DNA of 64,000 bases from Nitrospirota bacterium (GCA_963751455.1 CAVVUN010000003.1:224001-288000), one strand, 5' to 3'. Shown: positions 27,990-62,892, numbered from the stretch's first letter. Numbers and translations: made by a program. Notes: generated by a model not told the origin, from the letters alone.

Positions 27990-28118
27990 GGGGGACTTAG
28001 CTTTTAATCAGTCGTCGCTGTTCGGTCTCCACGTCACACAGTCGATACTCTGTCAGATTCGGGTAGGATATAGACCTTATAAAGACCTGACCCTGAGCGG
28101 TTTGATTAATAAAATAAT

Positions 28119-28862
28119 ATGGAAAAGAAAATAATATTTAACTTGATGGTTGTCTGCCTGACCGTTTGCATTGCATGTTCCTCTGCATTTGCCGACGGAT
28201 TTGGTGATTGCGGCGGCGATCGTCAGCCCACCAAGGCCGAGAAAGACGCGATACGGGCAGTTGTGAAGACGATACACGGATCTCTCCCCGATCTTCCCAA
28301 AGGCTGGGAAATGATAAAAGTGGAATCGGCAGAGAGCGCAATGCCGTCTCAGGTTTTTGATCGCTGTCCTATCTGGTTCGGGGTTATGGCAGAATACGGT
28401 AATAACGGAAATGCCATCGATCTGGCGAAGAACACGGACGCGGAGCGGCTGGTTGAGACGCTGAAGGAAATGCAGGCCGCGATGATGAAGGGAGACAAGA
28501 AAAAGGCTGAGAGACTGGAAAAGCAATTGGCCGGCGTCGGTGAGAAAGCGGATAATGTCACAGCACTTATTATGTTCCGCGTTAATTCCATATTTTCATC
28601 GAATTTTGACATCAGCAGGGCGAAGCCTATTTTCGTCGAAGGTGCTGCCTACGCTTTTTACAACGATACGCCGGGCGACAAAAAAGTCGGGTTGTATGTG
28701 GGCAGATGGAAACAGGCCAAGGGCAACCTGGTCAATCCGTGGTTGATGAAGGACCGACCCGGGCACGAAGTTCAGCTGGTCGAGATCGTGATCACCGGGG
28801 AGATCGCGCTGGAACTGGCGCGCAGACTGGATGTCAAGCTGCTTGCATCGCTGATAAAGTAA
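28119..28862 (+). CDS. Secreted hypothetical protein
   Basis: Signal peptide ending AFA; flanked by GGGTCAGGTCT sites at 28080 and 28932. Confidence 0.7.
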   Translation: MEKKIIFNLMVVCLTVCIACSSAFADGFGDCGGDRQPTKAEKDAIRAVVKTIHGSLPDLPKGWEMIKVESAESAMPSQVFDRCPIWFGVMAEYGNNGNAIDLAKNTDAERLVETLKEMQAAMMKGDKKKAERLEKQLAGVGEKADNVTALIMFRVNSIFSSNFDISRAKPIFVEGAAYAFYNDTPGDKKVGLYVGRWKQAKGNLVNPWLMKDRPGHEVQLVEIVITGEIALELARRLDVKLLASLIK

Positions 28863-29067
28863 ACAGGAACTCTCCTACCCCTAGACGTGGTTGGCGCGTT
28901 TGTGCGAGACGGGTTTGAATCTTTGGAACTTCTCAGGGTCAGGTCTTTAATGTTTGACTTTGTCTTTTTCCTCTGATATCCTCAGTTTTGAATAATTATT
29001 CAATTCAACATACTCACAATGATAAACTCTGGAGGCGCCCATGGAATACGATAAAGACAAGCCCCCT

Positions 29068-29998
29068 AGGGTCAGGTCTTTAATGTTTGACTTTGCTTTT
29101 TGACTCTGATATTCTCGTTGCATGGCACGACCTCTCCGCATAGAATACGCTGGCGCTGTTTACCACATTACCTCCCGAGGCAACGAAGGAAAGCCTGTTT
29201 TCAGGAGCGACCAGGACCGGATCAATTTCCTGAACACGCTTCAGCATGTCAATAAGCGCTACAATTGGATCTGCCATGCCTACTGCCTGATGGATAATCA
29301 CTATCATCTTTTGGTAGAAACGCCCGACGGCAATCTCGCCATAGGCATGCGCCAGTTAAACGGGGTATATACGCAGCTCTTCAACAAACTCCATGGCAGG
29401 GCTGGTCATCTGTTCCAGGGAAGATATAAGGCGATTCTTATTCAAAAAGACAGTCATCTCCTTGAAGTATGCAGGTATGTCGTGTTAAATCCCGTACGAG
29501 CAAAGATGGTAAATATACCGGAGGCATGGAAGTGGAGCAGCTACAAGGCAACTACCGGGAGGGAATCACCGTATCCCTGCCTTACCATAGACTGGGTCCT
29601 GGGTCAGTTCAGCGGAAAAAGGGCCATTGCGGAGAAAAAATACAAGGACTTCGTTCAATGGGGGATCGGTCAGAAAACGATATGGACTGAAGTGCGCGGC
29701 CAGGCAATCCTGGGCGAGGAAGAATTCGCGAATAAAATGGTCGATCATCTCAAAAAACACAAAAACGTGCCCGAGATACCGCGAAGCCAGCGCTACGCTA
29801 ACAGGCCGGGACTCGATAAGATCTTTTCTGCAAAGGTTCTTAAGGACAGGCTAAAGCGAGATCGGAAGATCGCCGAGGCAGTCGAGAAACACGGATATAC
29901 CCAGCGGGCAATTGCCAAACATCTCGATATGCACTACTCTTATATAAGTCAGATTTTGAGTGAGCGTGAGCAAACATAAATATTAAAGACCTGACCCT
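29068..29998 (+). mobile_element. RAYT/Y1 transposase unit bounded by 17-bp inverted repeats
   Basis: AGGGTCAGGTCTTTAAT (29068) and ATTAAAGACCTGACCCT (29982-29998). Confidence 0.75.
29122..29979 (+). CDS. REP-associated tyrosine transposase (Y1 HUH) with C-terminal HTH
   Basis: MARPLRIE..YHITSRGN, AYCLMDNHYHLL (HUH), GHLFQGRYK, RYVVLNPVRA, WSSY. Confidence 0.92.
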   Translation: MARPLRIEYAGAVYHITSRGNEGKPVFRSDQDRINFLNTLQHVNKRYNWICHAYCLMDNHYHLLVETPDGNLAIGMRQLNGVYTQLFNKLHGRAGHLFQGRYKAILIQKDSHLLEVCRYVVLNPVRAKMVNIPEAWKWSSYKATTGRESPYPCLTIDWVLGQFSGKRAIAEKKYKDFVQWGIGQKTIWTEVRGQAILGEEEFANKMVDHLKKHKNVPEIPRSQRYANRPGLDKIFSAKVLKDRLKRDRKIAEAVEKHGYTQRAIAKHLDMHYSYISQILSEREQT

Positions 29999-30199
29999 CA
30001 ATGCTTCCACTCCCGCGACAGGTGGGACCACGCCTGCTGCCCGATGAACAAACTCTTCACGACGCAGGATCTCATCGACAAGAGCAAACGATGCAAGAAA
30101 AGCATTGATGCAGTTGCAGGATATAGGTATACTGAGCAGCGGATAGCAGCTTTTGTCTGATTGAGAGGATATTCGGCAGGGAAAAGAAAGGGATGCGTA

Positions 30200-31066
30200 A
30201 TGAAGAATGAAAGTGATCCAATCTCAAAAAAGGTGGATGAGTTTCTGCAAATCTTCAAAAAAGGGGAGGAGTTCACCCAGGAGCTACTGACTGAAAACGA
30301 GAAGCTCCGGTTACAGGTCGCCGCACTGGAGAAGATTGCACAATCGTCCCCCGGACGCGGCGGCATCGGACCGATTCCGATCGAAGAACGGATACAGGTC
30401 CTGGAACAGGAGAACACGGCCCTTCTCGACAGGTTCCGCGCGGTGGAGGCGGAGAACAAGGATTTCGCCAACCGGTACGTCGAGGTGGAAGCCGAAAATA
30501 ATAATCTGGCGAACCTCTACGTTGCCAGCTACCAGCTTCATTCAACGCTCGATTTCAACGAAGCTGTGAGAATCATCATGGAAATCGTCATGAACCTCGT
30601 CGGGGCCGAGGAGTTCTCCATCATGATGCTCGACGAAAAGACAGAGGAATTGACGATCGTTGCGGGTGAAGGACTGGTCCCTGAGGAAAGGTCAAGCGTC
30701 AAGCTCGGCGAGGGAATCATCGGAAACTCCGCCCTCTCGGACAAAGCCTTTTACCGGGAAGGCGATCCTGCGGATATGAGCGGGGTCGATTACACCCATC
30801 CGCTGGTCTGTATTCCGCTCAAGATCAGCGAGCAGGTCATCGGCGTAATTGCCGTCTATAAGCTGCTTCAGCACAAACAGGCATTGAACAGCATGGATTA
30901 CGAGTTGTTCAGCATGCTGGCCGGCCATGCTGCCACGGCCCTCTATTCGTCCAACCTGTATTCTCATTCAGAGCGGAAGCTTTCCACGATCCAGAGCTTT
31001 CTCGATCTGCTGAAGGAAATAATAAAACGGAGGCGAACATGCCCGATTACACGTTTCTCGTCGTAG
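30200..31066 (+). CDS. Coiled-coil + GAF domain protein
   Basis: FTQELLTENEKLR coiled coil; LANLYVASYQLHSTLD...GEGIIG...CIPLK...VIGVI GAF. Confidence 0.8.
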   Translation: MKNESDPISKKVDEFLQIFKKGEEFTQELLTENEKLRLQVAALEKIAQSSPGRGGIGPIPIEERIQVLEQENTALLDRFRAVEAENKDFANRYVEVEAENNNLANLYVASYQLHSTLDFNEAVRIIMEIVMNLVGAEEFSIMMLDEKTEELTIVAGEGLVPEERSSVKLGEGIIGNSALSDKAFYREGDPADMSGVDYTHPLVCIPLKISEQVIGVIAVYKLLQHKQALNSMDYELFSMLAGHAATALYSSNLYSHSERKLSTIQSFLDLLKEIIKRRRTCPITRFSS

Positions 31067-31417
31067 ATGATTCTCCCACCATGCGCCAGCTTATCTGCTT
31101 CTCGCTCAAACGGATTCCGGGATGCAGGATCGTTGAAGCGAACGACGGCGTCGAAGCCTTGAAGAAGCTTGCGACCGATACTTTTTCGCTGATTCTTACG
31201 GACATCAACATGCCGATCATGGACGGGCTGAAGCTGGTTTCGATGATACGGAACGATCCGAAGTACAAATCGATTCCGATTATCATTATTACTACCGAGG
31301 GCGCCGAGGAAGACCGGAAAGACGGGCCTGGCACTCGGAGCGAACGGCTATGTATCGAAGCCGGTCAAAACCGGGGAGTTGCTGGATATGGTCAATAAAT
31401 TGCTCGGGAATTCATGA
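31039..31417 (+). CDS. cheY: CheY-like response regulator, frameshift ~31320
   Basis: VVDDSPTMR, TDINMP.MDG, IIITTEG; after removing one A: KTGLALGANGYVSKPV...LLGNS*. Confidence 0.85.
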
Positions 31418-31628
31418 AGAACATCGCTGAGAACCGCTGAGGAGAGCCTCTTAGGGTCGGTCTTTCTTCTTGAAGTTATCTTACACCTCTGCTATTGGCA
31501 CGCCCTCTTCGCATAGATTATCATGGCGCAATTTATCGCAGTCTTGATACCTTTTGTTCAATCTGATGTTAAAAGAAGAATATGCTAAACTTTATCTGGA
31601 ACAGATAGTTGCTGTTCAGGAGGTAACC

Positions 31629-32048: not shown

Positions 32049-32060
32049 TTTAACCATCGA

Positions 32061-32099
32061 AAAGAACCCTGAGCAATTTCTTAATGCTCAGGGTTCTTT
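32061..32099 (+). terminator. Intrinsic terminator hairpin
   Basis: AAAGAACCCTGAGCA / TGCTCAGGGTTCTTT. Confidence 0.75.
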
Positions 32100-33895: not shown

Positions 33896-34171
33896 TGTTT
33901 TTCTCCTTTGAAGGAAAAGATCTGCGTATTTGATTCCTGTGTATTTAAAGTATAATCAGATTTTTGTTGCTGTCAATTTTCTAAGCCTTTTCGCCTTATC
34001 GATTTTGTGCGTGTCCGAAACATTTGAAATATTCTGCTTGAACCGGAAAAATGTCTCATCCTTAATTCGTAGTTTAATGAAGGGATCATCTCAGCATCTT
34101 AGGGGTTCACCTTCTTGTGGCTTGACATGAACGCGACATATCAGGGTCAGGTTGTTCCGGGCTTTTGAAGA

Positions 34172-34280
34172 ATTCTTTTGAGTGGTTCGACAGGACTTCG
34201 ACGAGCTCAGTCGAGTCGCTCACCACGAACGGATGAAAGTAAATAATTCCAACGATCCTTCCGTTCACCCGTCGAAGGGT
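34172..34280. repeat. CTTCGAC..GCTCA REP-like element
   Basis: GTGGTTCGAC..GACTTCGACGAGCTCAGTCGAGTC..CTCACCACGAACGG...CCGTTCA..GTCGAAGGG; partial copies at 46687 and 53582. Confidence 0.6.
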
Positions 34281-34803: not shown

Positions 34804-35080
34804 CGAAAAGGGTCACCTCAACGTGATACAGTTTATGGTTTTTAGTTCTTAGTTTCTTGTTCAAATCCGAAAACTCTCCTGCCGAGCCTTTCTTACTTTC
34901 CCGCCATTTCTGTTCTTGACTTCACGCACAGCTTCCTTATTATAGTTGAGCATTATAATCCGGAGTAAATAGGGACAGGGTCCGGGTGCAGGGTCCAGGG
35001 TCCGGGGACCGGGGTCGAAAGGTGTTATGACTTACAATGATATATTGCGAAGGTTCCGCTATGCTTTGAATATCAATGAT

Positions 35081-36704
35081 CCTAAAAACGGCAGTTGAGT
35101 CTATTTTCACATTGGCTGAGGCAGCAAAGCTGGCGTCGAGAGGGGTTTCCCCTTCAGGATTTTGTTGAATGCACGGCTTAAGATCAACCTCCAACGTTCC
35201 GCCTGCGTCAACTGCTCCGCAGTTTCCCGGAGTCTTCTCAGAAACAGGGCGATCTCATTGAGCGTGCCCTGTATTTTCTCCGTCTTTGCGTGAGCGCTTG
35301 TAATGGTCACGGTAGTCTGGCTCTGGTGATATGTTTGTTTGGCGACCGCATGAAGAAGCAACGGCCGGCTCGTAACAGCCTCCAGATGCTTGTCCGGTCG
35401 GGCGAGCCGCACAAAGAGGGACCACCAGTTGTAGATCAACGCCACGATCCGGGCCATATAGCCACAGCGTTTCAGATCTTTGGTCGTATAGCCTCCCCAC
35501 CCCCACTGATTTTTCAGTTCATCGAAATTGTTCTCAGCATCGGCCCGATCCCGGTAGTGCTGCGCGATGGTAAGGACTTCGCCCGGAATGGTTGTGGCCA
35601 GCACTGCGTATTCATACCGCTTTGCGGTTCCATTCGTCTCGACGAAACCAAGCTCCATCTGATCCTTGTCTTTCTCACTGATGACGACATCGCCCTTGAG
35701 CGCCCGTCGAAGTACGATGACGCGCCGCTTTATCTTCCACCCCATAAGCTGAAGTTCTTCTTCCACACCTTCCCATCCCTGACCGGCTTGCTGCCAACCA
35801 TTCCGCTGAAATGTCTTTTCGATGAGCTTCCGCACGTTTTTGGTGAGGCGGAGCTTGACCAGATAGGGCAGGCCTTTTGTTTCCGCCTGGGACATGAAGA
35901 CGTCATTTCCCCAGCCTGAATCGCCCCGAAAAAACGCGGGCCAGTGACGTTTTGGAATGGAGCCCAGCAACTCCCACAAGCCCGGCGTGCTATAGCAGGT
36001 TGCGGTTTTGTTGCCCGCCTGTACCTCGACATCCAGCACGAGCCGGGTGTTGGCCATCAGATAGCTGTGGTAGGTATGAGACGGCCTGCCAGGCTTGTGA
36101 GGATTATAGCCGACCACTGCGCCTTCCTGTTTCCCGTACAGCGGTTTTACCGTGGTGTCGCCATCCATGATCCAGGACACAGAAAGCAGCGCGTCATAAC
36201 AACGCCTGACATGTTCCTTGAGCCAATGCACCCCCTGAGTTTCATCTATCTGGCGCAGGGCTTTTCGCACCGAGTCCTCACTCACGACGGCGGTCATGCC
36301 GAGCAGGCCGGGATTGACGTTGTCGCACCGAACGTTCGTAATATGCGAGTAGCGATGGTGGCCGGCCAGAACAGACAATAACACCGTGCCCAGCACATCT
36401 CGCTTTTCCGGTGCATTGGGGCTTGTGTAGTGAAGCGGACAATCAGCAACCCAGGGATCGTAGAGACCGCCGGTCTTCAGAAAATCGATGAAAAATGCCA
36501 TCTGTCCCAGTGGCGTAACGGCTGCAGTCGGATCCCATTCTACGTGGATACGACCGCTGAACGTATCGACCGCAACTCCCTCTGGTTTCCGTGCAGACAA
36601 CGATCTATTTGGTTCACCCATTGGGCGAGTCCTCCTCTTCGGGTTAATTGCTGCAATATCCATCAATTAACTTCGTTTGACAAGGACCAACTGCTCTTTT
36701 AAGG
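35081..36704 (-). mobile_element. IS1380-family element (1624 bp)
   Basis: Ends CCTAAAAACGGCAGTTG / CAACTGCTCTTTTAAGG; 5-bp TSD ATGAT (35076-35080, 36705-36709). Confidence 0.9.
35107..36666 (-). CDS. IS1380-family DDE transposase
   Basis: IMDGDTTVKPLYGKQEGA..GYNP.K.GRPS, FRGDSG, YRDRADAENNFDELK. Confidence 0.9.
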   Translation of the reverse strand: MMDIAAINPKRRTRPMGEPNRSLSARKPEGVAVDTFSGRIHVEWDPTAAVTPLGQMAFFIDFLKTGGLYDPWVADCPLHYTSPNAPEKRDVLGTVLLSVLAGHHRYSHITNVRCDNVNPGLLGMTAVVSEDSVRKALRQIDETQGVHWLKEHVRRCYDALLSVSWIMDGDTTVKPLYGKQEGAVVGYNPHKPGRPSHTYHSYLMANTRLVLDVEVQAGNKTATCYSTPGLWELLGSIPKRHWPAFFRGDSGWGNDVFMSQAETKGLPYLVKLRLTKNVRKLIEKTFQRNGWQQAGQGWEGVEEELQLMGWKIKRRVIVLRRALKGDVVISEKDKDQMELGFVETNGTAKRYEYAVLATTIPGEVLTIAQHYRDRADAENNFDELKNQWGWGGYTTKDLKRCGYMARIVALIYNWWSLFVRLARPDKHLEAVTSRPLLLHAVAKQTYHQSQTTVTITSAHAKTEKIQGTLNEIALFLRRLRETAEQLTQAERWRLILSRAFNKILKGKPLSTPALLPQPM

Positions 36705-37252
36705 ATGATCGAAGCATGCTCGATATTTTCCGGCTTGGTGAGCATCCGATGGATCTAGCCGGCCTGAAAGACCTGCTGAAAAAAGAGGGCGAGCAAGGCT
36801 ATGTTGTGTGCAGCAGTAAGGTCCTGGGTTCTTTTTTGGACGGGTTCATTATTTACAAACGGGGCAGGCAGGAACCGAAGGCAGGGGAGATCAAACGCCC
36901 TGATCCTGAGTTGACGAACAATGTTATTTTGAGGAAAATTCGGATCGCCCTTGAATTAAAAGAGGACGATATGCTCGGCATATTGAAGCTTGCGAAGGTT
37001 ACTATCTCGAAATCCGAATTAAGCGCTTTTTTCAGGGCTACGGAACATAAAAATTTCAAGTCATGCGGGGACCAGATTTTGAGGAACTTTTTAACCGGGC
37101 TTGCTCTTCGGTATCGGCCTGGGGACGGTTTTTAGTTTCGAGTTATTAGTTTTTAGTAATTATCCGCACCTGAACACTCAGCACGTCGGCCAGTTCTCTA
37201 CTCTACCTCCTGGTTCTTCTCGTGGTTCCTCCTGGTTCCTGTGGTTCCCGAA

Positions 37253-39289: not shown

Positions 39290-39371
39290 GCGGGGGAATA
39301 GAGAACCTCTCAGGGTAAGGTTTTTAATGTTTGACTTCCGCTGACCACTTCATCAGAGGAGCACTCTTAGT

Positions 39372-41114: not shown

Positions 41115-41408
41115 AAACATCTTGAGGTCCCCTATGAAGGCTCTCCGTCAAGCATTCGATAAATCCGTTTCGAGTTTTTAGTTATGAGTTTAAATCGAAA
41201 CAACCTATGTTGAAGCAGTCCCAACCTCTCCGGAAGCCGGCCATTCTTAATGCGCGCCTGTTCGGTGCAACTTTTAGAAACTTCTAATCCCTATACCCCA
41301 TAAATACCCCGCACAGGGTATTGCCAGCAACTCACAATTTCCCTATATTGATACCAGCAAAAATTAGTTTTAACAAAATTAAATAGTCAATAGCGAAAGA
41401 GGTGCAGC

Positions 41409-45272: not shown

Positions 45273-46601
45273 ATGAAGCTCTTCAATTTGATCATATCCT
45301 TGATAATCGTCGTCGCATCGGTTTTCCTGTGCGGGCGGTATATTTCCCATTCTTTCTCCAACCAGAAGGACAAGGCCGACCATGCAGTGCTGAATCATGC
45401 CAAATACGGCCTGTTCAGCGTCGAGGAATGGAAAAAACAGCTCTCCGCGATCGCTGCCGGGGAGATCAGCATGCTGAACCTGAATAAATCGGCCGAGCGG
45501 GAAGTTCGGAAGCGTCTTGAGGGTCTCCTCGTCATTTTTATCGACAAGGTTTACGAGCGGATCACGGAAGCAAACTCAAAAACCGCGGGGGGCCGGTTCA
45601 AGCAAACCTTCATCAATATGTTCGTCAATCTGGATGAGGTCAAGAAGGGCGTCCCGGGATATGCTAAAGCCATCATGCATGAGTTGACGCAAGCGAAGAC
45701 GAAAAAGCAGGTCAAGGCCGTGCTGCACGAGCAGCTTGAACGCTATATCGAGGAAACGTTTGATGTAGAAGAAGACTTGCGGATCGGCGCCATTCTCGAG
45801 AGGACCGGGTCTCCGGATGTCGAGAGCGCGGGCGCCAGGCTCTACAAGGACATCTCTGCACGGCGGGTCCTGATCAGGAATGAGGCTGTCCTGCTGGTAA
45901 TTCTGCCGATCGTCCTGTTCTCATGGATTGCTCTGAACAGACGCACGGTGACCGTTACCCAGTATGTCCTCCTCATCCTGTCCCTTCTCATTCTGCTCAC
46001 CGCCGGCGTGACCACACCCATGATCGACATGGAAGCAAAGATCTCGCGGATGGGCTTTGTGCTGCTGGGGCACCCCATCCAATTCCAGAACCAGGTGCTG
46101 TTTTTTCAGAGCAAAAGCATACTGGATGTGTTCTGGATCCTGATCACGGACAAGGACCTCCAGATGAAATTTGTAGGGGTCCTGCTCATAACTTTCAGCA
46201 TCCTGTTCCCTCTGTTGAAACTGGCTTCGCTGCCTGCCTATTATTACGATTACCGGGGTGCGCGAAAGAGCCGGGTGATCGAGTTCTTTGCCGTGAAGTC
46301 CGGGAAGTGGTCCATGGCCGATGTGATGGTGCTCGCCATATTCATGGCCTATATCGGGTTCAACGGGGTCATAACCAGCCAGTTCAGCCAATTGAGCGCG
46401 GCAAGCCAGGGACTGGAGCTGATGACCACGAACGGCACGTCTCTTCAGCCCGGGTATTACCTCTTCGTGACGTATATCCTCCTGGCGATGATCTTTTCAG
46501 GGGTGCTGACAGGAGAGGCTCGGGAGCGAGCCGCGCAGGGATCGCACGATCATCTTGAGGTCACCCATGGGCGCCATCAATCGAAAACAGCTATCTTGTG
46601 A
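45273..46601 (+). CDS. Paraquat-inducible protein A (PqiA) family membrane protein
   Basis: FQSKSI, FSILFP..K, GKWSMADV.V.AIF, LQPGYY.F. Confidence 0.8.
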   Translation: MKLFNLIISLIIVVASVFLCGRYISHSFSNQKDKADHAVLNHAKYGLFSVEEWKKQLSAIAAGEISMLNLNKSAEREVRKRLEGLLVIFIDKVYERITEANSKTAGGRFKQTFINMFVNLDEVKKGVPGYAKAIMHELTQAKTKKQVKAVLHEQLERYIEETFDVEEDLRIGAILERTGSPDVESAGARLYKDISARRVLIRNEAVLLVILPIVLFSWIALNRRTVTVTQYVLLILSLLILLTAGVTTPMIDMEAKISRMGFVLLGHPIQFQNQVLFFQSKSILDVFWILITDKDLQMKFVGVLLITFSILFPLLKLASLPAYYYDYRGARKSRVIEFFAVKSGKWSMADVMVLAIFMAYIGFNGVITSQFSQLSAASQGLELMTTNGTSLQPGYYLFVTYILLAMIFSGVLTGEARERAAQGSHDHLEVTHGRHQSKTAIL

Positions 46602-47097
46602 CGAGAAACGGAACGTTTTTCGTCGAGCTTCTCAGTTATCCTCATCAGTACCATTGCCGCAGTTTCATTACTTTTCGATGTCAGTTCCCTTCAACAAGCT
46701 CAGGAAAGCCTTCACTGCACCTGTCACCGAGGAGTAAGACCACGGTGAATCGTTATCGCTGGTCCTTTCCGTCTTCGGCGGACCAGAAATCTTCGGTTCC
46801 ATGCCGTGTCAAAATATTTGTATAAGTCTTATGGTTGATATCCAGTCCTAGGATAGCTCGCGTATAATCCGACCCTAAACAGTGCGACGCTTATCAGTTT
46901 TTCTCTTCAATTAAGTTTTAAAACCAGGCAATAACGAAGTTTATTAATACTTTTGGTTGATTGCCTTTTTCCTCAAATTCGTGCTACATTCATATTATAA
47001 TATGCATCCTTTCGCTTTATCTATTTCGCCCCTGGCTCGTCACCCCGCTAGGGCCTAATAAATTACCTTTTCAATAACACCGTTTATTGGGGGCTTT

Positions 47098-50000: not shown

Positions 50001-51051
50001 TGCTGACAACACGGATTGTAACGATGCTTCCTCTAGTATTCATCCCGGCGCTACTGACGTCTGCGAGAATACTGTTGACGAAGACTGCAGCGGAAGTGCT
50101 GCTGTCTGTCCTACCACCTGGTATCGTGATTCTGACGGCGATGGTTACGGTAATCCAAACATCGGCATGTCCTCTGCCACGAAACCATCTGGTTACGTAG
50201 CCGACAATACCGACTGTGACGACGTGTTCTCTAATATTCATCCCGGTGCTAATGATGTCTGTGACGATGGATTGGATGCCGACTGCAGCGGAAGCGACAC
50301 TATCTGTCCTAAAACTTGGTATCGTGATGCAGACGGCGACAGCTATGGCGATCCCAGCATCAGTAAGTCCTCCGTCGCCAAGCCATCTGGTTATGTATCT
50401 GACAAGACCGACTGTAACGATTCCTCCTCTAATATCCACCCGGATGCCACTGACAGTTGTGATAACAATGTGGATGAGGACTGCAGCGGAAGCGCGGCGA
50501 CATGTCCTACTACTGAATGGTACCGTGATGCAGACGGCGATGGCTATGGTGATCCTTATATAGGAATGTCCTCAGCCACTAAACCATCTGGTTACGTTGC
50601 CGACAATACCGACTGTGACGACGTGTTCTCTAATATTCATCCCGGTGCCAATGATGTCTGTGGCGATGGATTGGATGCTGACTGCAGCGGAAGCGACGCT
50701 TGTCCGCCTCCTGACGATCATGGCGATACATGCACCTCAGCTACGGCAATCGCTCGAAACCAATGTAATGAATTAGGCAATATCGGGTCACAAGATGATG
50801 ACGATTATTTTAAAGTATCTCTACCGTCGTCGGGAAATTGGACTGTATATACAGAGGGAAGCACAGATACGTACGGAACGATATTTAATTCGAATTGTAC
50901 TTCGTTAAAATCTAATGATGATACCGGAGATGGCTCTAATTTCAAAATCACTTACTCCGTTACATCGGCTGGCTCTTACTACATCCGAGTTCGTGGAAAA
51001 AACGACACTACGGGAGGATATTCCTTATTTTCATCTTTCTCATCTAACTAG
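47098..51051 (+). CDS. Large surface lipoprotein: FN3 + nine MopE-like metal-binding repeats + PPC-like domain
   Basis: Lipobox LMSC; YTVSW..YKLEES..FYRVKA FN3; WYRD.DGDGYG...DC.D...IHPGA...D.DC repeats; DDDYFK..DTYG..NDD.G.G.NF.I PPC. Confidence 0.85.
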   Translation: MSTSFNRNLVLVVVMLSAASALMSCSGNKDSGRATSETTESESKVIAPDGLNTSKLIISSPGSEQITPSESGSFTSSRNGVSGFSTAIATDVTGSIVMFSAVTNSIIPLDVYSTAATIVVSCLNSFGFQGESYEEQMPILRTIPEVRALGDYINNNVKSMSEKLYSIDNEKFMALVSTAVTAAIHTMQYPTSSDQFLLPDWAQPSVPVNNVLTSRAASKFQRPTSEVTEYSWWPEGTDSEWAMLTFDFEQEKANFLQVMIHNYWLRDVYVYLVPSRAFSASNIHSGHYLGSIDPAPSALTLDGIRSMFDGDLYLNSTTFVDIPLSEFELDNEALLAFVGPGTKNRGYLSWDTNRDILLRLMIRSVLVRVIAPSFSLASKLPANEIGKALADDIDLVDKIFDAVEAGETGKKAITAFREGRYVDGFFNLVSIANSFVFNDPGDGRTNRALRIYRQLQGISIVGARSSAENYMLNLCSRLALIDGFNSSWNLVGFGTTINRASELAIYSITRKPLVCDTPSTITVPRTSLTGNYTVSWSGSDTTGVIYKLEESSTSDFLSSSEVYSSTATSAIILGKKEGIFFYRVKATKNGYVNSEWRKGDNGCTVAIGTTWYRDSDGDGYGNPSIGVSSATKPSGYVADNTDCNDASSSIHPGATDVCENTVDEDCSGSAAVCPTTWYRDSDGDGYGNPSIGVSSATKPSGYVADNTDCNDASSSIHPGATDVCENTVDEDCSGSAAICPTTWYRDSDGDGYGNPSIGVSSATKPSGYVADKSDCDDSSSNIHTGATDSCDNNVDEDCSGSAATCPTTEWYRDADGDSYGNPNIGVSSATKPSGYVADNTDCNDASSSIHPGATDVCENTVDEDCSGSAAVCPTTWYRDSDGDGYGNPSIGVSSATKPSGYVADNTDCNDASSSIHPGATDVCENTVDEDCSGSAAVCPTTWYRDSDGDGYGNPSIGVSSATKPSGYVADNTDCNDASSSIHPGATDVCENTVDEDCSGSAAVCPTTWYRDSDGDGYGNPNIGMSSATKPSGYVADNTDCDDVFSNIHPGANDVCDDGLDADCSGSDTICPKTWYRDADGDSYGDPSISKSSVAKPSGYVSDKTDCNDSSSNIHPDATDSCDNNVDEDCSGSAATCPTTEWYRDADGDGYGDPYIGMSSATKPSGYVADNTDCDDVFSNIHPGANDVCGDGLDADCSGSDACPPPDDHGDTCTSATAIARNQCNELGNIGSQDDDDYFKVSLPSSGNWTVYTEGSTDTYGTIFNSNCTSLKSNDDTGDGSNFKITYSVTSAGSYYIRVRGKNDTTGGYSLFSSFSSN
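48928..50700 (+). repeat. Nine intragenic ~198-bp tandem repeats
   Basis: TGGTAYCGTGAT recurs every 198-201 bp; several units near-identical in DNA. Confidence 0.9.
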
Positions 51052-51119
51052 AAACAGTTTTTGCGGAACACATTTGGGGTCACCCAATTTAAATAGCACC
51101 GTCAATGTGAGACAGTTTA

Positions 51120-52637
51120 CCTTGTAGTTGCATAAACATTTCTTGAAAATATGCAGAAACCTCTGGAAACAGGCTTCATTATTGGATATAGTGCTCCTGC
51201 GATATCATTATTTCACTCAAGCAGGAGGCCACTGAAAGTGAAGTCCAGTAAAGCACAGGTTCTAAGCCGCGTTCACAAAATACCGGAACTGAAGTTCGAG
51301 GATCAACAGCTCACTTCCTACGCGGGCCTTGCTATCATTCAGGCATTCTTCACGAAGCTGAATCTGAAAGCCCGCTTGAAAAGCTGCTTTGATCATCTAC
51401 CGTCGAGCGCCATCTTCGGCAATCACGTCATTACGCTCGTGCTGATCGTGCATCTGATGCTGGGTTATCGGAAACTCCGCGACATCGAATACTATCAGGA
51501 CGACCTTATGGCGCTTCGTCTTCTGGGCCTCCGAAAAATGCCGGACGTTTCCACGATCAGCCGGGCATTGATGACGGTCGACGCAAAGGACATTTTGAAT
51601 CTTCGTCGGTTCTGCCGGGAAATGTCGCTCTCCCGCATACAGGGTTTGAAGCTTCGTCGCGTGACGCTTGATTTCGACGGCTCTGTGCTCTCGACCTCCC
51701 GATGGGCTGAGGGTGCCGCCGTAGGCTTCAACAAAAAGAAAAAAGGGCAGAGAAGCTATTATCCGCTTTTCTGCATGATCGCTCAGTTGGGCATGGTCCT
51801 TGACGTCCTGCCCCGTTCGGGTAACGTACATGATTCCAACGGCGCCCGGGCGTTCATCCTTGCGTGCATCGAACAGGTGCGTGCAACCTGTTCGGATATC
51901 GTCATCGAAGTGCGCATGGACAGCGCTTTCTTCAGCGATGAAATCGTCGGCGCGCTGGAGCGCGACGGAATTGAGTTCACCATCTCGGTCCCCTTTGAGC
52001 GGTTCTCCGAACTCAAACACATGATCGAAGCCAAAAAACGCTGGAGGCGTTACGATTCCGTTGTTTCCTATTTCGACACACCCTGGAAGCCGAAAAGCTG
52101 GGACAGCCGGTTCCGCTTTCTTTTTATTCGTCAAAAAGCCAAAAAGCAGTCAAAAGAGCCGGTGCAGCTTGATATGTTCACGCCGCACGAATACGGGTTT
52201 GACTTCAAGGTGATCGTTACAAACAAAACAACGACGGTGAAGAAAGTCCTGAACTTCCATCAGGGCCGCGGTTCTCAGGAAAACATCCTTGGAGAGCTAA
52301 AGTCCCAGTGCAATATGGATTACGTGGCTGTGAGAAGATTGCACGGAAATCAGCTATACATGATGTCGGCGATCATCTCGCACAATCTCCTGAAGGAACT
52401 TCACATGGTCGCGCATGAACCCGACCGGGGCACCACCGAAAAACGGGCCGCTCTTTGGGAGTTCACGGAGCCCAATACCCTGCGAAGAACACTTATACAG
52501 CGTGCCGGCCGCCTGACACAGCCCGGCGGCAAGCTAACTCTGACAATGAACGCCAATCCACGAGTCAAAAAGGGGTTGTTGCATTATCTCGACCGATTGC
52601 AACGGGCCGCATAGCGATTTTTTATGCAACGTTAAGG
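51120..52637 (+). mobile_element. Second IS1380-family element
   Basis: IRs CCTTGTAGTTGCATAAA / TTTATGCAACGTTAAGG; TTTA duplicated on both sides. Confidence 0.85.
51238..52614 (+). CDS. IS1380-family DDE transposase
   Basis: LTSYAGL, TLDFDGS, G.RSYYPL, RMDSAFF, GRG.QEN..GELK, LRRTLIQRAGRL. Confidence 0.9.
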   Translation: MKSSKAQVLSRVHKIPELKFEDQQLTSYAGLAIIQAFFTKLNLKARLKSCFDHLPSSAIFGNHVITLVLIVHLMLGYRKLRDIEYYQDDLMALRLLGLRKMPDVSTISRALMTVDAKDILNLRRFCREMSLSRIQGLKLRRVTLDFDGSVLSTSRWAEGAAVGFNKKKKGQRSYYPLFCMIAQLGMVLDVLPRSGNVHDSNGARAFILACIEQVRATCSDIVIEVRMDSAFFSDEIVGALERDGIEFTISVPFERFSELKHMIEAKKRWRRYDSVVSYFDTPWKPKSWDSRFRFLFIRQKAKKQSKEPVQLDMFTPHEYGFDFKVIVTNKTTTVKKVLNFHQGRGSQENILGELKSQCNMDYVAVRRLHGNQLYMMSAIISHNLLKELHMVAHEPDRGTTEKRAALWEFTEPNTLRRTLIQRAGRLTQPGGKLTLTMNANPRVKKGLLHYLDRLQRAA

Positions 52638-52701
52638 TTTATAGTTTATAGTTTTTAGTTGGTAGTTTCTTGATCACACCAGAACCTCTTAGGGTCACCC
52701 A

Positions 52702-52770
52702 TATGAAGAGTCCGCCAGTACTCTACCACATTACTTCCCGCCGCGACGAGGGGAAGCTCGTTTTAAAGCG
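52702..52770 (+). pseudogene. RAYT N-terminal remnant
   Basis: LYHITSRRDEGKLV resembles VYHITSRGNEGKPV of 29122; bracketed by GGGTCACCCATATGAA copies (52692, 52819). Confidence 0.6.
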
Positions 52771-53109
52771 ATCGAACCCGTATGGATTTCCTCACCCTCC
52801 AGCACATCAAACATCTGAGGGTCACCCATATGAATTATTAGTTGGATGTCAAAGAACAAAAACTGAAGCTCTTCCTGGATACGACCCAGGTCGAAGAATA
52901 CAAGTATCAACTGCGATGATTTGATCGGATATTTATCACGACATCGCGGCTTCAGCGAATTGAGTCCACGATGTCGTGAGCATTATTTTTGTCCACATGT
53001 CCTGGACGTTGTCAATTAGTCTTTAATGATTGCCGGACTTACCCTGCAACTTTGTGTATTGCTTAATTGCTGAAGAACGAGTATTAAATAAAAAAAGGGA
53101 GGATACGAC

Positions 53110-53971: not shown

Positions 53972-56900
53972 TTGAAATTCATTCCACTGCTGTTGTTTGG
54001 TCTGCTTTCTGTTCTCCCTGTCCATGCGGCTGAAATGTCGGATCTCGAGGTCCGGACCGCGCACGATTGGGTGACTAATTCCTTCGAAATCCCGGGACAA
54101 GAGCCGTTTTCATTCAACTACAACGGGAGGACCTCCTCTCGATTTCTGGGTTCGTGGAGGGTCTCGCAATCGAAAACCACGCTCGACTCCCGGCGCGTCC
54201 GGCACGACATTCGGTATCGGGATGCGGCAAGCGGCCTGGAAATCCTGGTCGAAGCTGTCGAATATAGAGACTTCGCCGCCGTCGAGTGGGTGCTCAGGTT
54301 CAGGAATACCGGCTCAAAAGACACTTCGATCCTCCGTAATATCTGGCCGATCGACACATCGATGGGCGCTGCCGCGGGCCCGGGAGACTATCTTCTCGGC
54401 TATGCTGCCGGAAGCGCCGCCAAAGAGAGCGACTTTCAGCCGAAAAACGCGCTTATCGCGCCCGGTAGTTCAATAACCTTGAAGCCGTTCGGCGGACGTT
54501 CCTCGGGCGGCGGAACCACGCGCGGACCGCAAGAGGGCGTCCTTCCGTTCTTCAACATCGCATACCCGGGCGGAGACGGGTTCGCCGCAGCTATCGGGTG
54601 GACAGGACAGTGGAACGCAACATTCTCGCGTGCCGCTGGTCCCGCCCTCCGGGTGAATGCCGGAATGGAACGTGTGAATCTGCGGCTGCATCCGGGAGAG
54701 GAAATACGCACTCCCTCCGTGCTTTTGCTATTCTGGACCGGCAACGACAGCACGCGCGGCCGGACATTCCTCCGCCGCCTGCTGCTGGCGCACTATACTC
54801 CCCGGACAGGAGGCGAACTGCAAGCCGCTCCCGTGGCTGCTTCACCGAACGGAACCATCCCGATGGAAGCAGTGAGTGAAACAAACATGAAGCAGGCGAT
54901 TGCAAATATCGCGGCTCATCCGCTGCCGCTCGACACGTGGTGGGTGGATGCCGGGTGGTATGCCGGGAAAAATATTCCCTGGTGCGACCCGGCCCATCTG
55001 GGCTCCGCGGATTTCAACGGCGATGGCACGCTTGATCTCCTTTGCAGCACCGAGGACGGTAAACATCTCGTCGCCCTTTCCGGGGGCGACGGCAGCTTTG
55101 CAGCAATACAACCGTGGCCGGCTGCAGGCGCCTGGTGCGATCCGGCGCATCTTTCCACGGGTGACTTCAACGCTGACGGCAGAGCCGACCTGATCTGCAG
55201 CGGCGAGGACGGCATGCATGCTATTGCCTTCTCGGAGGGCAACGGCGCGTTTTCGTCGCCGGGGTGGTGGCAGCAGGCGTGGTGCGAACCGCGGAGCCTG
55301 GACATGGCCGACTTCAACGGCGATCGCAAGCTTGACCTCATTTGCAACGCGGACGGCGGCATACACTTCGTCGCCCTTTCCAAGGGCGACGGCAGCTTTG
55401 CGCCAATGCCGGCGTGGCCTGCCGGCGGCGCATGGTGCGATCCAAAGCATCTCGCGATGGGTGACTTCAACGGCGACAATAAAGCCGACCTGATCTGCAG
55501 CGCTGAAGACGGCAGGCACATTATTGCCTTCTCGGACGGAAACGGCGCGTTTTCCTCGCCGGGTTGGTGGCAGCAGGCGTGGTGCGAACCGCGGAGCCTG
55601 GACATGGCCGACTTCAACGGCGATCGCAAGCTTGACCTCATTTGCAATGCCGACGACGGCAAACACCTCGTCGCCCTTTCTCAAGGCGACGGCAGCTTTG
55701 CGCCGATGCCGGCGTGGCCTGCGAGGAGCGCCTGGTGCGATCCAAAGCATCTCGCGACGGGTGACTTTAACGGCGACCATAAAACAGACCTGATCTGCAG
55801 CGCCGAAGACGGCAGGCACATTATTGCCTTCTCGGAAGGCAACGGCTCGTTTTCCTCTTCGGAATGGTCGCATGACGCCTGGTGCGATCCGGCACATCTC
55901 AGAATAGGCGATTACAGCGGAGCGGGAAAAACCGGATTAAGTTGCCACTCGGACGACGGAAGGCACATCGTGGCATTCTCGAACGGGCTCGGCGGCTTTA
56001 TTTCGCCGGGCTGGTGGACCAACTCGAACTGGGCTGAAAATGTCGGGAACTTCGATCCCGACCCGGTCAGGTTCCCGCATGGGCTGAAACCCGTGGCAGA
56101 CGCAGCGCACGCAAAAGGGCTCAAGTTCCTTTTATGGTTTGAGCCGGAGCGCGCCATGCCGGGCACCTGGATGTACGACAATCATTTCGACTGGCTTATC
56201 CCTCCTCCCGGCAACTTGCCCGATGACGTAAACTACTTGTACAGGGACGGATTTCACCTGGTAAATTTAGGACTGCCTGAGGCGCGTGAGCTGCTGCGCC
56301 GGAAGGTGTCGGCCATGATCGCCGACATAGGGATCGACATCTATCGTCACGATTTCAATATGTATCCGCTCTATTACTGGCGCAGTCAGGATGAGCGCGA
56401 CCGGCAGGGCATGACGGAAATACGGTATGTCACGGGACCCTATGCGTTTCTCGACGGGCTCAGGCAGGATCATCCGGACCTCGTGATCGACAACTGCGCC
56501 TCGGGAGGGCGCAGGATTGATTTCGAAATGCTGCGGAGAGGGTTTGTGCTGACGAGGAGCGACTACTTGTGGGAGCCTGCGGGGCAGCAGAACCATACGT
56601 ACGGGCTTTCCGAATGGGTACCCATATCAGGAATCGGAGCGGCGAGCAACGACGCATACAGCGTGCGGAGCGGAATGGGCTACCATGGAGTCTTCGCATT
56701 CGACTACTTCTCCGTTGATCCCTCGTATTGGCTGCAAAGCAACAGGGTCTTGACCGAGATGACTTCCATGCGGGACCTTTTCCTGGGGGATTTCACGCCC
56801 CTTACGCCGACGGACAATGACAATTCCCGCTGCATTGCCTGGCAGTTCCATCGGCAGGATTCGGGCCGCGGATTGGTGCAGGCATTTCGGCGTGAGGGAT

Positions 56901-57094
56901 GCCTGACAGGAGCGATGACGGTCCGTTTGACCGGGTTGTTGCGATCGCGTGAGTACCAGGTAATCGATCTGGATGATGACATGCCGCGGCAGATGAGCGG
57001 CGACGAACTGATGGACCAGGGTCTGACGATCCCGTTTCCGTTGACAGGCGGGACCGCGGCCAGGGTCATTACTTTCACGCTGCAGAAACACTAG
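53972..57094 (+). CDS. Secreted GH36 alpha-galactosidase-like enzyme with inserted FG-GAP propeller
   Basis: LPFFN, AIGWTGQW, WVDAGWY, RFPHGLKPVAD..H.KG.KFLLWFEPER, YRHDFN, DNCASGGRRID, RSDY; seven DFNGD repeats. Confidence 0.88.
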   Translation: MKFIPLLLFGLLSVLPVHAAEMSDLEVRTAHDWVTNSFEIPGQEPFSFNYNGRTSSRFLGSWRVSQSKTTLDSRRVRHDIRYRDAASGLEILVEAVEYRDFAAVEWVLRFRNTGSKDTSILRNIWPIDTSMGAAAGPGDYLLGYAAGSAAKESDFQPKNALIAPGSSITLKPFGGRSSGGGTTRGPQEGVLPFFNIAYPGGDGFAAAIGWTGQWNATFSRAAGPALRVNAGMERVNLRLHPGEEIRTPSVLLLFWTGNDSTRGRTFLRRLLLAHYTPRTGGELQAAPVAASPNGTIPMEAVSETNMKQAIANIAAHPLPLDTWWVDAGWYAGKNIPWCDPAHLGSADFNGDGTLDLLCSTEDGKHLVALSGGDGSFAAIQPWPAAGAWCDPAHLSTGDFNADGRADLICSGEDGMHAIAFSEGNGAFSSPGWWQQAWCEPRSLDMADFNGDRKLDLICNADGGIHFVALSKGDGSFAPMPAWPAGGAWCDPKHLAMGDFNGDNKADLICSAEDGRHIIAFSDGNGAFSSPGWWQQAWCEPRSLDMADFNGDRKLDLICNADDGKHLVALSQGDGSFAPMPAWPARSAWCDPKHLATGDFNGDHKTDLICSAEDGRHIIAFSEGNGSFSSSEWSHDAWCDPAHLRIGDYSGAGKTGLSCHSDDGRHIVAFSNGLGGFISPGWWTNSNWAENVGNFDPDPVRFPHGLKPVADAAHAKGLKFLLWFEPERAMPGTWMYDNHFDWLIPPPGNLPDDVNYLYRDGFHLVNLGLPEARELLRRKVSAMIADIGIDIYRHDFNMYPLYYWRSQDERDRQGMTEIRYVTGPYAFLDGLRQDHPDLVIDNCASGGRRIDFEMLRRGFVLTRSDYLWEPAGQQNHTYGLSEWVPISGIGAASNDAYSVRSGMGYHGVFAFDYFSVDPSYWLQSNRVLTEMTSMRDLFLGDFTPLTPTDNDNSRCIAWQFHRQDSGRGLVQAFRREGCLTGAMTVRLTGLLRSREYQVIDLDDDMPRQMSGDELMDQGLTIPFPLTGGTAARVITFTLQKH

Positions 57095-58967: not shown

Positions 58968-59241
58968 AACTTCCTCCTTATTGTCATCGCCAGGCTTCTT
59001 TGCTTATGAGTGCCCGGAGCCCTTCTTGAACATATTGCCTGTATTATACATCTGAAGTATTACCACTTGGAAGAACAAATAGCAAGGGGGCAACAAGGAC
59101 ATTATCGAGACACTATTGAAATCTTCTTATTTAGTCTTGGCCTAATAAATACGGCGGACTCTCATCCGCCGTATTTAGCCATTGAAGCAAGCTGTAAACT
59201 GTATGTCCCCGCTGCAGATATTTTACTTTGAAAGCTGAGCG

Positions 59242-59911: not shown

Positions 59912-60287
59912 TTTATAGCCTCCTTTTCGGTTATAAAGAGTATCAGAAAGTTTTTATTCCGTTTAAACTATGAATGCTTTTATTCAACGTATATACATTC
60001 TCTGCGGGCCGATCACCTCCCTAACCCGGAATCTCGCTCGCTTGATCCGTTGGTTTTTTTTCGAAGATCTCTTTTAAGAAAGCAAAATAAATACCATTTC
60101 CAGCATTTTGAAATTGCGGCAATTTTGGGCACATAATTGTCGCGGCTGCTGTTCCGTAAGCAAAATTGGCGTAGAAAAGTGTTACGGATGTTTCTTTTGG
60201 ATACAACTTTGATGTGAAAGGAACGACTCTGGGACAGCTCTTTCTTTACCCTTGACAAACCCTCTCTCCGGCATATAATCCCTCACC

Positions 60288-61841: not shown

Positions 61842-62026
61842 AAAACATCTGATTTCGATATCCGATTCAGCCGATATTTTTCCCGCCGGACCTTTCAGCT
61901 ATCCCCATCATTACTACAGGTCTTATCCGGCCTCGGCACGTACGCTTGCCTTTCATTCAACCTTTTCCGATTACAGTTGTCTCATAAACAAGGAAGATTT
62001 CATTCATACCAAGGAGGAATACTACA

Positions 62027-62368
62027 ATGAGAGTTTTTGTAAACACGTTCCTGGCCACATTGTTTCTCGCAGCACTTATTCAGACCGGCTTTGCCCAAAC
62101 CTATCCAGACAGCGGATTGGGCCCCGCAATACAGGAAGGCGGCGGAAAAGAGATCACCCCGCAGCAGTTCAGCGAGATGAAGACGCGAATCCTTACAATG
62201 ATCGAGGAACGAAGGAAGAGACTCGACCAGGAAAAGTCCTGCGTGGAAGCGGCAACGAACGCGGACGAGCTGAGAAAATGCAGGCAAGAGCGTCCGATGG
62301 GAGGGCAATTCCAGGGCGGTCCCGGCCAACAGCGGCCTCCGAGGGGCGGCATGGGCGAGGGTCGGTAG
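62027..62368 (+). CDS. Secreted hypothetical protein
   Basis: SD AGGAGG; signal peptide; CV.AA...EL..C. Confidence 0.75.
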   Translation: MRVFVNTFLATLFLAALIQTGFAQTYPDSGLGPAIQEGGGKEITPQQFSEMKTRILTMIEERRKRLDQEKSCVEAATNADELRKCRQERPMGGQFQGGPGQQRPPRGGMGEGR

Positions 62369-62382
62369 TCATCTTCAATCAA

Positions 62383-62412
62383 AAAAGCCGGCAGATGATT
62401 CTGCCGGCTTTT
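62383..62412 (+). terminator. Intrinsic terminator
   Basis: AAAAGCCGGCAGA / TCTGCCGGCTTTT. Confidence 0.75.
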
Positions 62413-62433
62413 GCATTCCAAGATCATCCATTT

Positions 62434-62565
62434 ACAGGCTGTTGAAAAAGGTCTCAAAACGTCAAAACGCACCCTAAAGGGTGCGGCTACCAATTATAAA
62501 ATCAATGCGTTACGATTTGGTAGTCGCAGGCTTTAGCCTGCGTAATTAGTTTTTCAACAGCCTGT
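62434..62565. mobile_element. 132-bp MITE containing two GTAG-type REPs
   Basis: Perfect 16-bp IR ACAGGCTGTTGAAAAA / TTTTTCAACAGCCTGT; internal CGCACCCTAAAGGGTGCG-GCTAC and GTAG-TCGCAGGCTTTAGCCTGCG. Confidence 0.8.
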
Positions 62566-62892
62566 TTTAAAGGTCACCTCAAGGTACATGATACAGTTTG
62601 AAGTTTTTAGTTGTTAGTTCAAAACACGAAAATTTTTCCCCGAGCCGGTCTGCTATCTTCACTCAATGGGTGTACAAGACAATTCCCTCGGCATAAGTCG
62701 CCCCTCGCTATGATTGTAAAAATGCAAAAAATAACCATCTCGTAACTTTCTACCCTGTCATCTCAACTCATTTTCTAATTCTAAAGATTGAAAATTTATC
62801 GCGGAGTTGAAATTTAATTTATTCGCGTTATCTTTCAGTAATAGGTACGTGAAAACTCAGACACGAATGCAGCTCTTAAAGGAGAACTGCTT

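Follow-up and report, generated by a model that had tools for sequence, protein, structure and literature searches.

The 64,000-nucleotide (nt) stretch of a Nitrospirota bacterium genome analysed here (GCA_963751455.1, CAVVUN010000003.1:224001-288000; the window in what follows) carries a TIRtron, a small element in which the gene of a Y1/HUH nuclease (TIRYT) lies between terminal inverted repeats (TIRs), and around it stand truncated ends of elements of the same kind. TIRYTs and TIRtrons were described in 2013 (Di Nocera et al., PMC3733652), and the nuclease has been classified both as subclass 2.1 of TnpA-Y1 (Quentin et al. 2018, PMC6006769) and as group 1 of the RAYTs (Bertels et al. 2017, PMC5581495). 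Y1 nucleases of subclass 2.1 occur in 14.9% of the species sampled and are not known to have any activity, and the same survey found no sign that class 2 is mobile (PMC6006769). The complete element of the window consists of the following parts:

29059..29121, + strand: left end of the full element, with a leader of ~10 nt, the GGGTCA head and the 17-base-pair (bp) inverted repeat
29122..29979, + strand: TIRYT gene, a Y1/HUH nuclease with a C-terminal helix-turn-helix, 285 amino acids (aa), supported by Pfam, NCBIfam, alignment and model
29982..30007, - strand: right end of the full element, inverted repeat 29982-29998 plus leader

The protein matches Pfam Y1_Tnp (E 3.3e-11) and, above its cut-off, NF047646 (NCBIfam REP_Tyr_transpos), and it carries the motifs NHYH (59-62), FQ (98-99), YVVLNP (119-124) and SS (139-140) when set against Table 1 of PMC6006769. 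Among 67 aligned relatives the candidate catalytic residues H60 and H62 are invariant and Y119 is conserved in at least 90%. At the C-terminus, a match to HTH_3 at residues 250-281 (E 3.7e-4) stays below the Pfam cut-off, and three helices are predicted at 243-283, in a block with predicted local distance difference test (pLDDT) values of 76-92. The predicted structure, built from the alignment of 67 (pLDDT 79.7), has its best fold match in Escherichia coli TnpA-REP (4er8), and it supersedes a poor prediction from 12 sequences (pLDDT 53). Profile searches of the PDB with TIRYT gave nothing significant, the helix-turn-helix matches being weak, and the TIRYT search returned one plasmid match at E<1e-40 among 72,556.

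The gene is bracketed by a 17-bp inverted repeat starting AGGGTCAGG (29068-29084 / 29982-29998), and a -35/-10 promoter is predicted, by consensus match only, at 29087-29115, 6 nt upstream of the TIRYT ATG. Because of the Y1/HUH motifs, the helix-turn-helix tail and the flanking inverted repeats, we classify the element at 29122-29979 as a TIRtron with a TIRYT of subclass 2.1, probably 2.1.2. It has in common with published TIRtrons this architecture, the NHYH, FQ, Y--NP and SS motifs, the lack of GTAG REPs (repetitive extragenic palindromes) and moderately abundant loose TIR copies. Its head, AGGGTCAG, differs by one base from the GGGGWSAS given in the main-text parts compared (7 of 8 positions fit), a motif that occurs in some, not all, TIRtrons; the full GGGGTCAG head is present in more distant relatives. 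An initial annotation of the window had called the gene a RAYT whose sites are not classical GTAG hairpin REPs, and this is seen directly in the sequence: the flanking repeats are non-palindromic TIRs, and the element is no REPtron (RAYT groups 2/3), GT[AG]G-footed hairpin REPs being absent beside the TIRYT gene.

The same annotation had listed 15 sites related to the TIRs, which it took to punctuate the accessory genes of the region like cassette boundaries, within a patchwork assembled by the HUH enzyme. The sequences it named are present at all 15 positions, including the inverted repeats around the Y1 gene, a tandem copy at 28935 and an outward-facing copy at 28080 that brackets gene 28119; its distances to stop codons agree with our list of open reading frames (ORFs), and 46551 lies inside the pqiA ORF. 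Each site was aligned locally to the TIRtron and compared with 200 shuffles, and was scored with a matrix of leader plus GGGTCA trained on 138 ends from other genomes (matrix A). A second matrix (B) was trained on the gene-flanking ends of the bacterium's own genome, which are themselves among its 59 matches, and a further test compared sites, and 100 random genomic stretches for each, with the end of an insertion sequence (IS) of IS1111 type joined to a GGGTCA-like end. Besides the ends of the full element, the sites read as follows:

28080..28104, - strand: solo end, 15-nt exact match plus leader, pointing away from gene 28119 (matrix B score 26.4)
28926..28987, + strand: truncated left end, leader plus 53 nt, stacked ahead of the full element (score 79 against a shuffle maximum of 35)
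31443..31540, + strand: decayed left end of another TIRtron including the gene start (96 nt, score 59 against a shuffle maximum of 33)
34134..34152, + strand: probable short end, leader plus GGGTCAGGT (matrix A 16.1, a score expected 0.68 times per 64 kb; the match does not extend further)
34809..34860, + strand: GGGTCACCTCAA site, resembling 62571 (matrix A 12.7, 3.1 expected per 64 kb)
39303..39337, + strand: truncated left end, leader plus 26 nt, 23 nt past a stop codon (score 47 against a shuffle maximum of 33)
41118..41152, + strand: degenerate end plus short IS1111-type stub, marginal (score 36 against a random maximum of 33)
46551..46685, + strand: degenerate end plus ~130 nt of IS1111-type non-coding end, overlapping the pqiA tail (score 92 against a random maximum of 39)
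51066..51118, + strand: end plus 42 nt of IS1111-type element, then cut by an IS1380-family element (score 49 against a random maximum of 30)
52682..52830, + strand: leader plus GGGTCA with 10 nt like an IS end, TIRYT remnant, and a second such end at 52819 (matrix A 20.1 and 14.6)
62571..62620, + strand: AGGTCACCTCAA site, resembling 34809 (matrix A background score)

The 5.72-Mb genome contains the exact 15-mer AGGGTCAGGTCTTTA four times, each time within the window (28080 and 29984 on the minus strand, 28935 and 29068 on the plus strand), where 0.04 would be expected per 64 kb. With matrix A, scores as high as those of 28080, 28935, 34143, 52692 and 52819 should arise no more than about once in 64 kb and those of 31453, 34809, 39312 and 51076 2-5 times, and 34096, 41118, 46551 and 62571 score at background. 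In the element alignment 28080 ties with the shuffle maximum (34 vs 34), and 34096/34143, 34809, 41118, 46551, 51076 and 62571 do no better than shuffles. The truncated left end at 28926..28987 retains the promoter-like boxes, and the RAYT remnant announced between 52692 and 52819 is a piece of TIRYT gene at 52724-52810 (score 74 against a shuffle maximum of 38); the likeness of 52692 and 52819 to the IS1111-type element covers ~10 nt only and falls below passing in the IS-end test. The stretch at 46551 is 82% identical over 140 nt to two related loci (L018 and L111).

We identify 28080, 28935, 31453 and 39312, from their sequence, as truncated TIRtron ends, and 34143, 52692 and 52819 probably belong with them. 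The sites 46551 and 51076 are read as TIRtron ends hit by the IS1111-type element, as 41118 probably is too, and 34096, 34809 and 62571 match neither the TIRtron nor the IS1111-type end. The initial attribution of the sites to an HUH element is supported; part of its related sites come from an IS110-family element. Five metagenome matches to the 52692 pattern had no TIRYT nearby and look like chance.

Ends of this kind are not special to the window. At scores of at least 19, matrix B finds 59 genome-wide against 3.3 expected, with 4 of these in the window, and the flanks of 78 related loci hold 39 against 4.1 expected. The genome has ~10 near-full TIRYT genes, ~57-73% identical to that of the window, plus many fragments. 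Since TIRYT families with different heads are found in genome G000, several TIRtron types coexist in one genome: more distant families with heads GGGTCAAATC and GGGGACGTAG and leaders of like style lie at C6:112456-113499, C9:160374 and C2:431165. The same genome holds three miniature elements of 72 bp, 87-93% alike, each consisting of a pair of TIR heads that face inward (C12:204451-204521, 213393-213465 and 215165-215237). Placement after stop codons exceeds chance in the window, because matrix A scores of at least 10 follow 6/54 ORF ends there, all six on the plus strand, vs 57/4679 in the rest of the genome, the ORF calls of our scripts following a simple and noisy longest-ORF rule; elsewhere this placement is weaker. 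Relative to replication, as judged by local GC skew, ends of the two orientations number 24 vs 18 overall and 14 vs 7 among solo ends, with a skew near zero in the window.

TIRtrons of this kind have spread recently as whole units. In a sister family (family A), five copies are complete or nearly so and share 96-98% nucleotide identity, and two more are partial; their flanks are unrelated, and one copy is nested in another TIRtron, of which it replaces ~400 bp. Family A copies at G000 C3:359910-361811 and C1:505690-506250 are interrupted by inserts that, labelled by eye, we take to be of group II intron type and of IS200/605 type. Of 8 elements checked, none has a direct repeat at its joints, so that there is no target duplication in them, and in 5 of these 8 the 9-10 nt outside both heads are mutually inverted. 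Where a known repeat forms the outer flank, its homology breaks off 8-12 nt short of GGGTCA in most of 15 joints examined visually; a scripted search placed the break at 9-12 nt in 13/22 joints, several of its longer offsets being double leaders. Because flank homology stops 9-12 nt outside GGGTCA, the leader travels with the element and defines its end. Neither inspected nor scripted joints reveal a target consensus, and in 12/15 joints the base inserted first or shared last is G. A C|T cleavage rule, as for TnpA-REP, was dropped: many stutter joints seemed by eye to obey it, yet the target base lost first is T in only 7/15 scripted joints.

A second property of these ends is the stuttering of their leaders. 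An exact 7-mer leader repeat precedes 81/306 ends, vs 0.66% of random positions, with repeat periods that peak at 10-11 and 15-18 nt, and the resulting scar is found family-wide. The aborted units contain 0-3 nt of the head in 58/81 cases and 6 nt in 16/81. Larger duplicated units also begin at a head and end anywhere, and their joints often cut genes midway (DsbA-like, hsdM-like, TIRYT). Such units may consist of the element itself (372 nt and ~900 nt, from either end) or of other genes, as in the 1.0-kb repeats of locus L042, where a DsbA-like gene breaks off at 137 and 294 aa, the three 1.13-kb YhgA/Rpn gene units of L090, 94-95% identical and flanking the TIRYT gene on both sides, and a 1.3-kb DUF7309 gene unit, 98% identical on two contigs of the own genome with unrelated leader-side flanks.

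Pairs of ends lying 300-6000 nt apart without a TIRYT between them (n=67) are direct in 48 cases, outward in 13 and inward in 6. Loci L101-L128 had been picked by eye for at least two close ends, hence the pairs were also counted without them (n=40): 31 are direct, 7 outward and 2 inward, both of the latter being interrupted TIRtrons. Locus L081 was excluded throughout, and so were redundant loci, three from the stutter, pair and stop-codon counts and six from the scripted joints. One pair counted among the 48 direct ones, C15:1100913 and C15:1106153, lies in a duplicated long ORF and is probably a chance motif. As direct pairs dominate and inward pairs are rare, composite transposons are not the main form.

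Comparison with relatives associates the ends with gained DNA. In genus g10, fumC lies directly before the sdh operon (fumC-sdhC) in 4/6 genomes, and accessory arrays punctuated by heads lie between them in the other 2/6. In one of these (G050) the intervening accessory genes span ~6.9 kb, beginning ~55 nt past fumC with a head that bears three leader copies and including two more co-oriented heads. The other (G049) has a different accessory set, after which come a 199-nt copy (83%) of the fumC 3' end and a head. In genus g8, trpB-trpA is intact in 4/5 genomes giving the locus, one more genome having no match; in the fifth (G022) ~6.5 kb with two co-oriented heads lie between trpB and trpA, and 65 nt of the trpB 3' end (98%) are fused straight to a leader. 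At both loci, leader joints have built tandem structures that include cargo; a causal role of TIRYT in this gain, and gene capture proper, would follow from the mechanism proposed below. The sites are thus real rearrangement joints, as the initial annotation suspected: in relatives they punctuate accessory arrays which, for each of the two loci, four congeners lack. They are not the fixed, cassette-like boundaries that it proposed: truncated ends vary in length, joints fall mid-gene, and inward pairs enclose passengers in 6/67 cases. Four co-oriented solo ends separate RES/HEPN, RhuM, Fic, hsdM-like, MscS and rhomboid genes at G000 C15:1424332-1433997 (L095); judged by ORF start, three of these kinds of gene (Fic, hsdM and RhuM-like) are found again in L126, behind a TIRtron and differently ordered.

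The heads are themselves the target of an IS1111-type element. It is 1.52 kb long, probably encodes a transposase of the IS110 family, and has subterminal inverted repeats and, downstream of its gene, a non-coding region that is conserved and structured. Its junction GGGTCA-CCCATWTRAAGG occurs in 33/64 family genomes and its far-side junction in 32/64, with 0 reversed-pattern controls for either. The insertion point is GGGTCA^RGTC: 7/9 two-ended copies rebuild the TIR head around a duplicated CA. A broken copy of 280 aa matches NF033542 at E 3.5e-36 (125 bits, below the cut-off of 140), so that the DEDD transposase of IS110 is a probable assignment, and other copies keep open frames of 344-357 aa. 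Copies lie in L191, L193, L200-L202, L204 and L207 and, in the own genome, at C12:620000-621530 and C15:193566-194891; the copy in L195 sits in a different multi-copy repeat of ~130 nt. In the non-coding region 17/107 predicted pairs have a two-sided change, and two conserved stretches of it, AAAGGGTCA and GACCT, agree with the target and follow the order that PMC11187229 describes, so that the element may be directed to TIRtron heads by its RNA.

Like other IS1111-type members of IS110, this element has a probable transposase of the family, subterminal inverted repeats, a structured non-coding region and one fixed insertion point, its target being here the TIRtron head. Members of the group are known to target other elements, namely IS4321/IS5075 (Tn21 TIRs), ISKpn4/ISPst6 (attC) and ISPa11 (REP), according to the same source (PMC11187229); a literature search not designed to exclude one found no earlier report of IS1111 targeting TIRtron heads. 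Stubs of this element account, on sequence grounds, for the clearest GGTCACC sites of the window. Those sites had been considered as footprints of head-to-head excision, which is ruled out by their being IS1111 junctions. The short GGTCACC motif as such is not enriched (51 vs 51 expected genome-wide, 22 vs 17 in the 78 related loci), and the window contains 7, the highest number of 163 overlapping windows.

We consider, with moderate confidence, that the truncated ends around the TIRtron are likely scars of one-ended nicking, extension and rejoining by its HUH enzyme. TIRYT, with its helix-turn-helix, would bind the head and nick 9-12 nt 5' of GGGTCA, so that leader plus head would be its substrate; it would hold the freed 5' end of the leader as a phosphotyrosine and seal it to any available 3'-OH. 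A 5'-phosphotyrosine intermediate is established HUH chemistry. The 3'-OH of the flank would then prime synthesis by a host polymerase through the end, and the products would depend on when rejoining occurs: stuttered leaders after 10-18 nt, stacked truncated ends after tens to hundreds of nt, and tandem gene copies after ~1 kb. If a distant or foreign 3'-OH were joined, the outcome would be transposition or deletion, or else an accessory block newly placed between ends of one orientation. The anatomy of the joints is observed; the position and polarity of the nick, and its catalysis by TIRYT, are what we infer from it. Selection would keep whole genes, perhaps aided by the promoter-like boxes of left ends, which is the reason we propose for the lean of ends towards stop codons.

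This scheme has precedents. For the amplification of bacterial interspersed mosaic elements (BIMEs), nicking, extension and rejoining have been proposed (Fig. 7B) and pick-up of flanking genes suggested, and strand exchange by TnpA-REP has been shown in vitro, as reported by Ton-Hoang et al. 2012 (PMC3333891). The E. coli TnpA-REP/REPtron/BIME system shares the fold with TIRYT, and its nick-extension-rejoining model fits the stutters described here; cleavage at a distance from the binding site, a 5'-phosphotyrosine and strand exchange likewise enter the scheme proposed for TIRYT. Unlike TnpA-REP elements, the window element has no GTAG-footed hairpin, carries an extra helix-turn-helix domain and spreads as a whole unit, and no strict CT site is established at TIRtron joints. 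IS91/ISCR elements, with one-ended rolling-circle transposition, distinct oriIS and terIS, a tetranucleotide target and no terminal inverted repeats (PMC13181058), share with TIRtrons HUH chemistry, the lack of target duplication and variable termination that mobilises adjacent DNA. TIRtrons are not members of that group, their ends being alike, both of them starting units, and their targets showing no consensus; by analogy, the element likely works like an IS91-type one-ended transposon.

Several observations weigh against this interpretation. Outside the window the preference for gene ends is modest: 46/178 intergenic ends (26%) lie within 80 nt past a co-oriented stop codon, against 16.5% of random intergenic positions, the figure in the own genome is 6/18, and 80/258 ends fall inside our crude ORF calls. 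The left and right leaders of the window's own element differ, so that this copy is not among the freshest, and no close relative of the window was found, the best DNA matches being gene-sized and 70-78% identical. In the gained islands, whose loci were chosen because ends lay near the core gene, the edges are not always heads (~55 nt off at fumC, ~650 nt at trpB), and the far joint of each cargo block has no head, therefore another process must make it. Head-side and far-side IS1111 junctions, found with different patterns, number 74 vs 55, a small excess that is no test of one-endedness, and in the consensus fold of the IS1111 RNA its putative guide stretches are paired with one another as well. 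Literature searches on TIRYTs and TIRtrons returned only PMC3733652 and PMC6006769, and no biochemical or in vivo study of any TIRYT was among the works listed by broader ones.

The simplest alternative is that two-ended elements hopped as ordinary insertion sequences, survived in dispensable or intergenic DNA and eroded later, the ends neither bringing nor moving genes. Multi-copy, IS-like spread, other IS types in the same region, island edges without heads and the intergenic position of most ends (18/29 solo ends vs a 15% non-coding background) all agree with such passive pile-up. Random erosion, however, does not predict stuttered leaders at 81/306 ends, nor units that start exactly at a leader and contain non-element genes, core-gene 3' ends duplicated onto a leader, or the bias of direct over inward pairs, and we regard it as rather unlikely. 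Shuffling might also be the work of others, TIRYT doing no more than supply the repeats: either the IS1111 recombinase, presumably RNA-guided, would act at GGGTCA^RGTC, or RecA would recombine co-oriented ends. Insertion of the IS1111-type element exactly at that point, the 16/81 aborted units that end after GGGTCA, which is the same point, and the direct repeats of 50-200 nt flanking some cargo would fit; the constant joint 9-12 nt outside the head, away from the CA core, and the 58/81 aborted units that copy only 0-3 nt of the head do not, and RecA could not create the first duplication at a leader without homology. Such an origin of the joints is, in our judgement, very unlikely.

Integrons use the tyrosine recombinase IntI and gather cassettes with fixed boundaries at folded attC sites. 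The present system resembles them in its co-oriented sites between small accessory genes, many of which look by eye like toxin-antitoxin pairs, and one might read the sites as fixed attachment sites, the genes as discrete units and the HUH enzyme as their integrase. Co-oriented sites following the stop codons of 6/54 window genes, small accessory arrays between direct ends, differing cargo behind the same end family at the fumC locus and the promoter-like boxes kept in solo left ends speak for it. However, the sites hold from ~14 to more than 900 nt of element sequence, joints cut genes so that no fixed cassette boundaries exist, the short heads have no attC-like hairpin (judged without an attC model), after-stop placement is weak outside the window, and several of the window sites are IS1111 stubs. 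No tyrosine integrase was found among the 48 window ORFs scanned against Pfam (148 ORFs listed), and we hold a cassette system to be highly improbable.

If one-ended nicking and rejoining by TIRYT is taken further, TIRtrons might constitute a widespread gene-capture system in which a resident end is an open acceptor for any incoming DNA end, an extension that we put forward as a tentative possibility. Each gain would duplicate the end together with 50-200 nt lying behind it. Toxin-antitoxin and defence genes would accumulate in polar arrays within core operons, with no integrase, attC or sequence requirement on the cargo, and a dedicated, RNA-guided IS1111 would parasitise the ends. Were the proposed nicking and rejoining by TIRYT true, it would provide a route of accessory-gene gain beside integrons and ISCR, and a small enzyme able to link a defined DNA end with an arbitrary 3'-OH, with stutters, one-ended units and cargo between direct ends as its predicted products. 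The IS1111 insertions offer a new natural target for recombinases predicted to be RNA-guided, and mark the ends as stable and abundant across the family. The present analysis contributes the recent spread of TIRtrons in multiple copies, the placing of the element's end outside the head, two loci in both empty and filled states, and an IS1111-type element that targets the heads.

In the window itself, two stretches would fit eroded products of the order element, cargo, element, each lying between outward-facing ends:

28119..28862, + strand: orphan gene of 247 aa, both flanks of which run into the leaders of outward-facing ends
30200..31418, + strand: GAF and CheY-like gene pair between the right end and the 31453 remnant, a second copy outside the chemotaxis-operon context

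Gene 28119 has no match in Pfam, NCBIfam or the metagenome scan, and only 2 weak matches in 63 family genomes. The GAF/CheY-like pair has a paralog at C3:91135-92294 (73% identical), and most of 10 relatives' loci have a CheB-like neighbour, as judged by ORF start from crude calls; the CheY-like ORF of the window pair looks frameshifted near its end. The gene to the left of the 28080 site (~27600-27990) presumably encodes a four-helix-bundle-like protein. The genes on both sides of the 39312 site look accessory: gene 38690 has no match in 24 relatives, and the YggU-like gene is a second, divergent copy.

Other repeats populate the same region, in which no Rfam families or tRNAs were found. Two IS1380-family elements (35065-36705 and 51116-52643) have identical copies elsewhere in the genome; the former appears to split a DUF1456 gene, and the latter cuts the IS1111 stub at 51118 and, at C1:186144, also adjoins the left end of a TIRtron. 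Two further families of palindromic repeats, dispersed in many copies over the genome, occupy 34165-34270 and 62440-62565, and at C12:233589 the first of them also lies within the remnant of a TIRtron. A T-rich AGTTTTTAGTT-type repeat lies beside four of the annotated sites (34830-34860, 41170-41195, 52643-52672 and 62590-62620). Two large proteins are encoded farther along, one at 47098-51051 with nine Cu-binding_MopE repeats and a PPC domain, and one at 53972-57094 in which FG-GAP repeats are fused to a GH36 melibiase domain.

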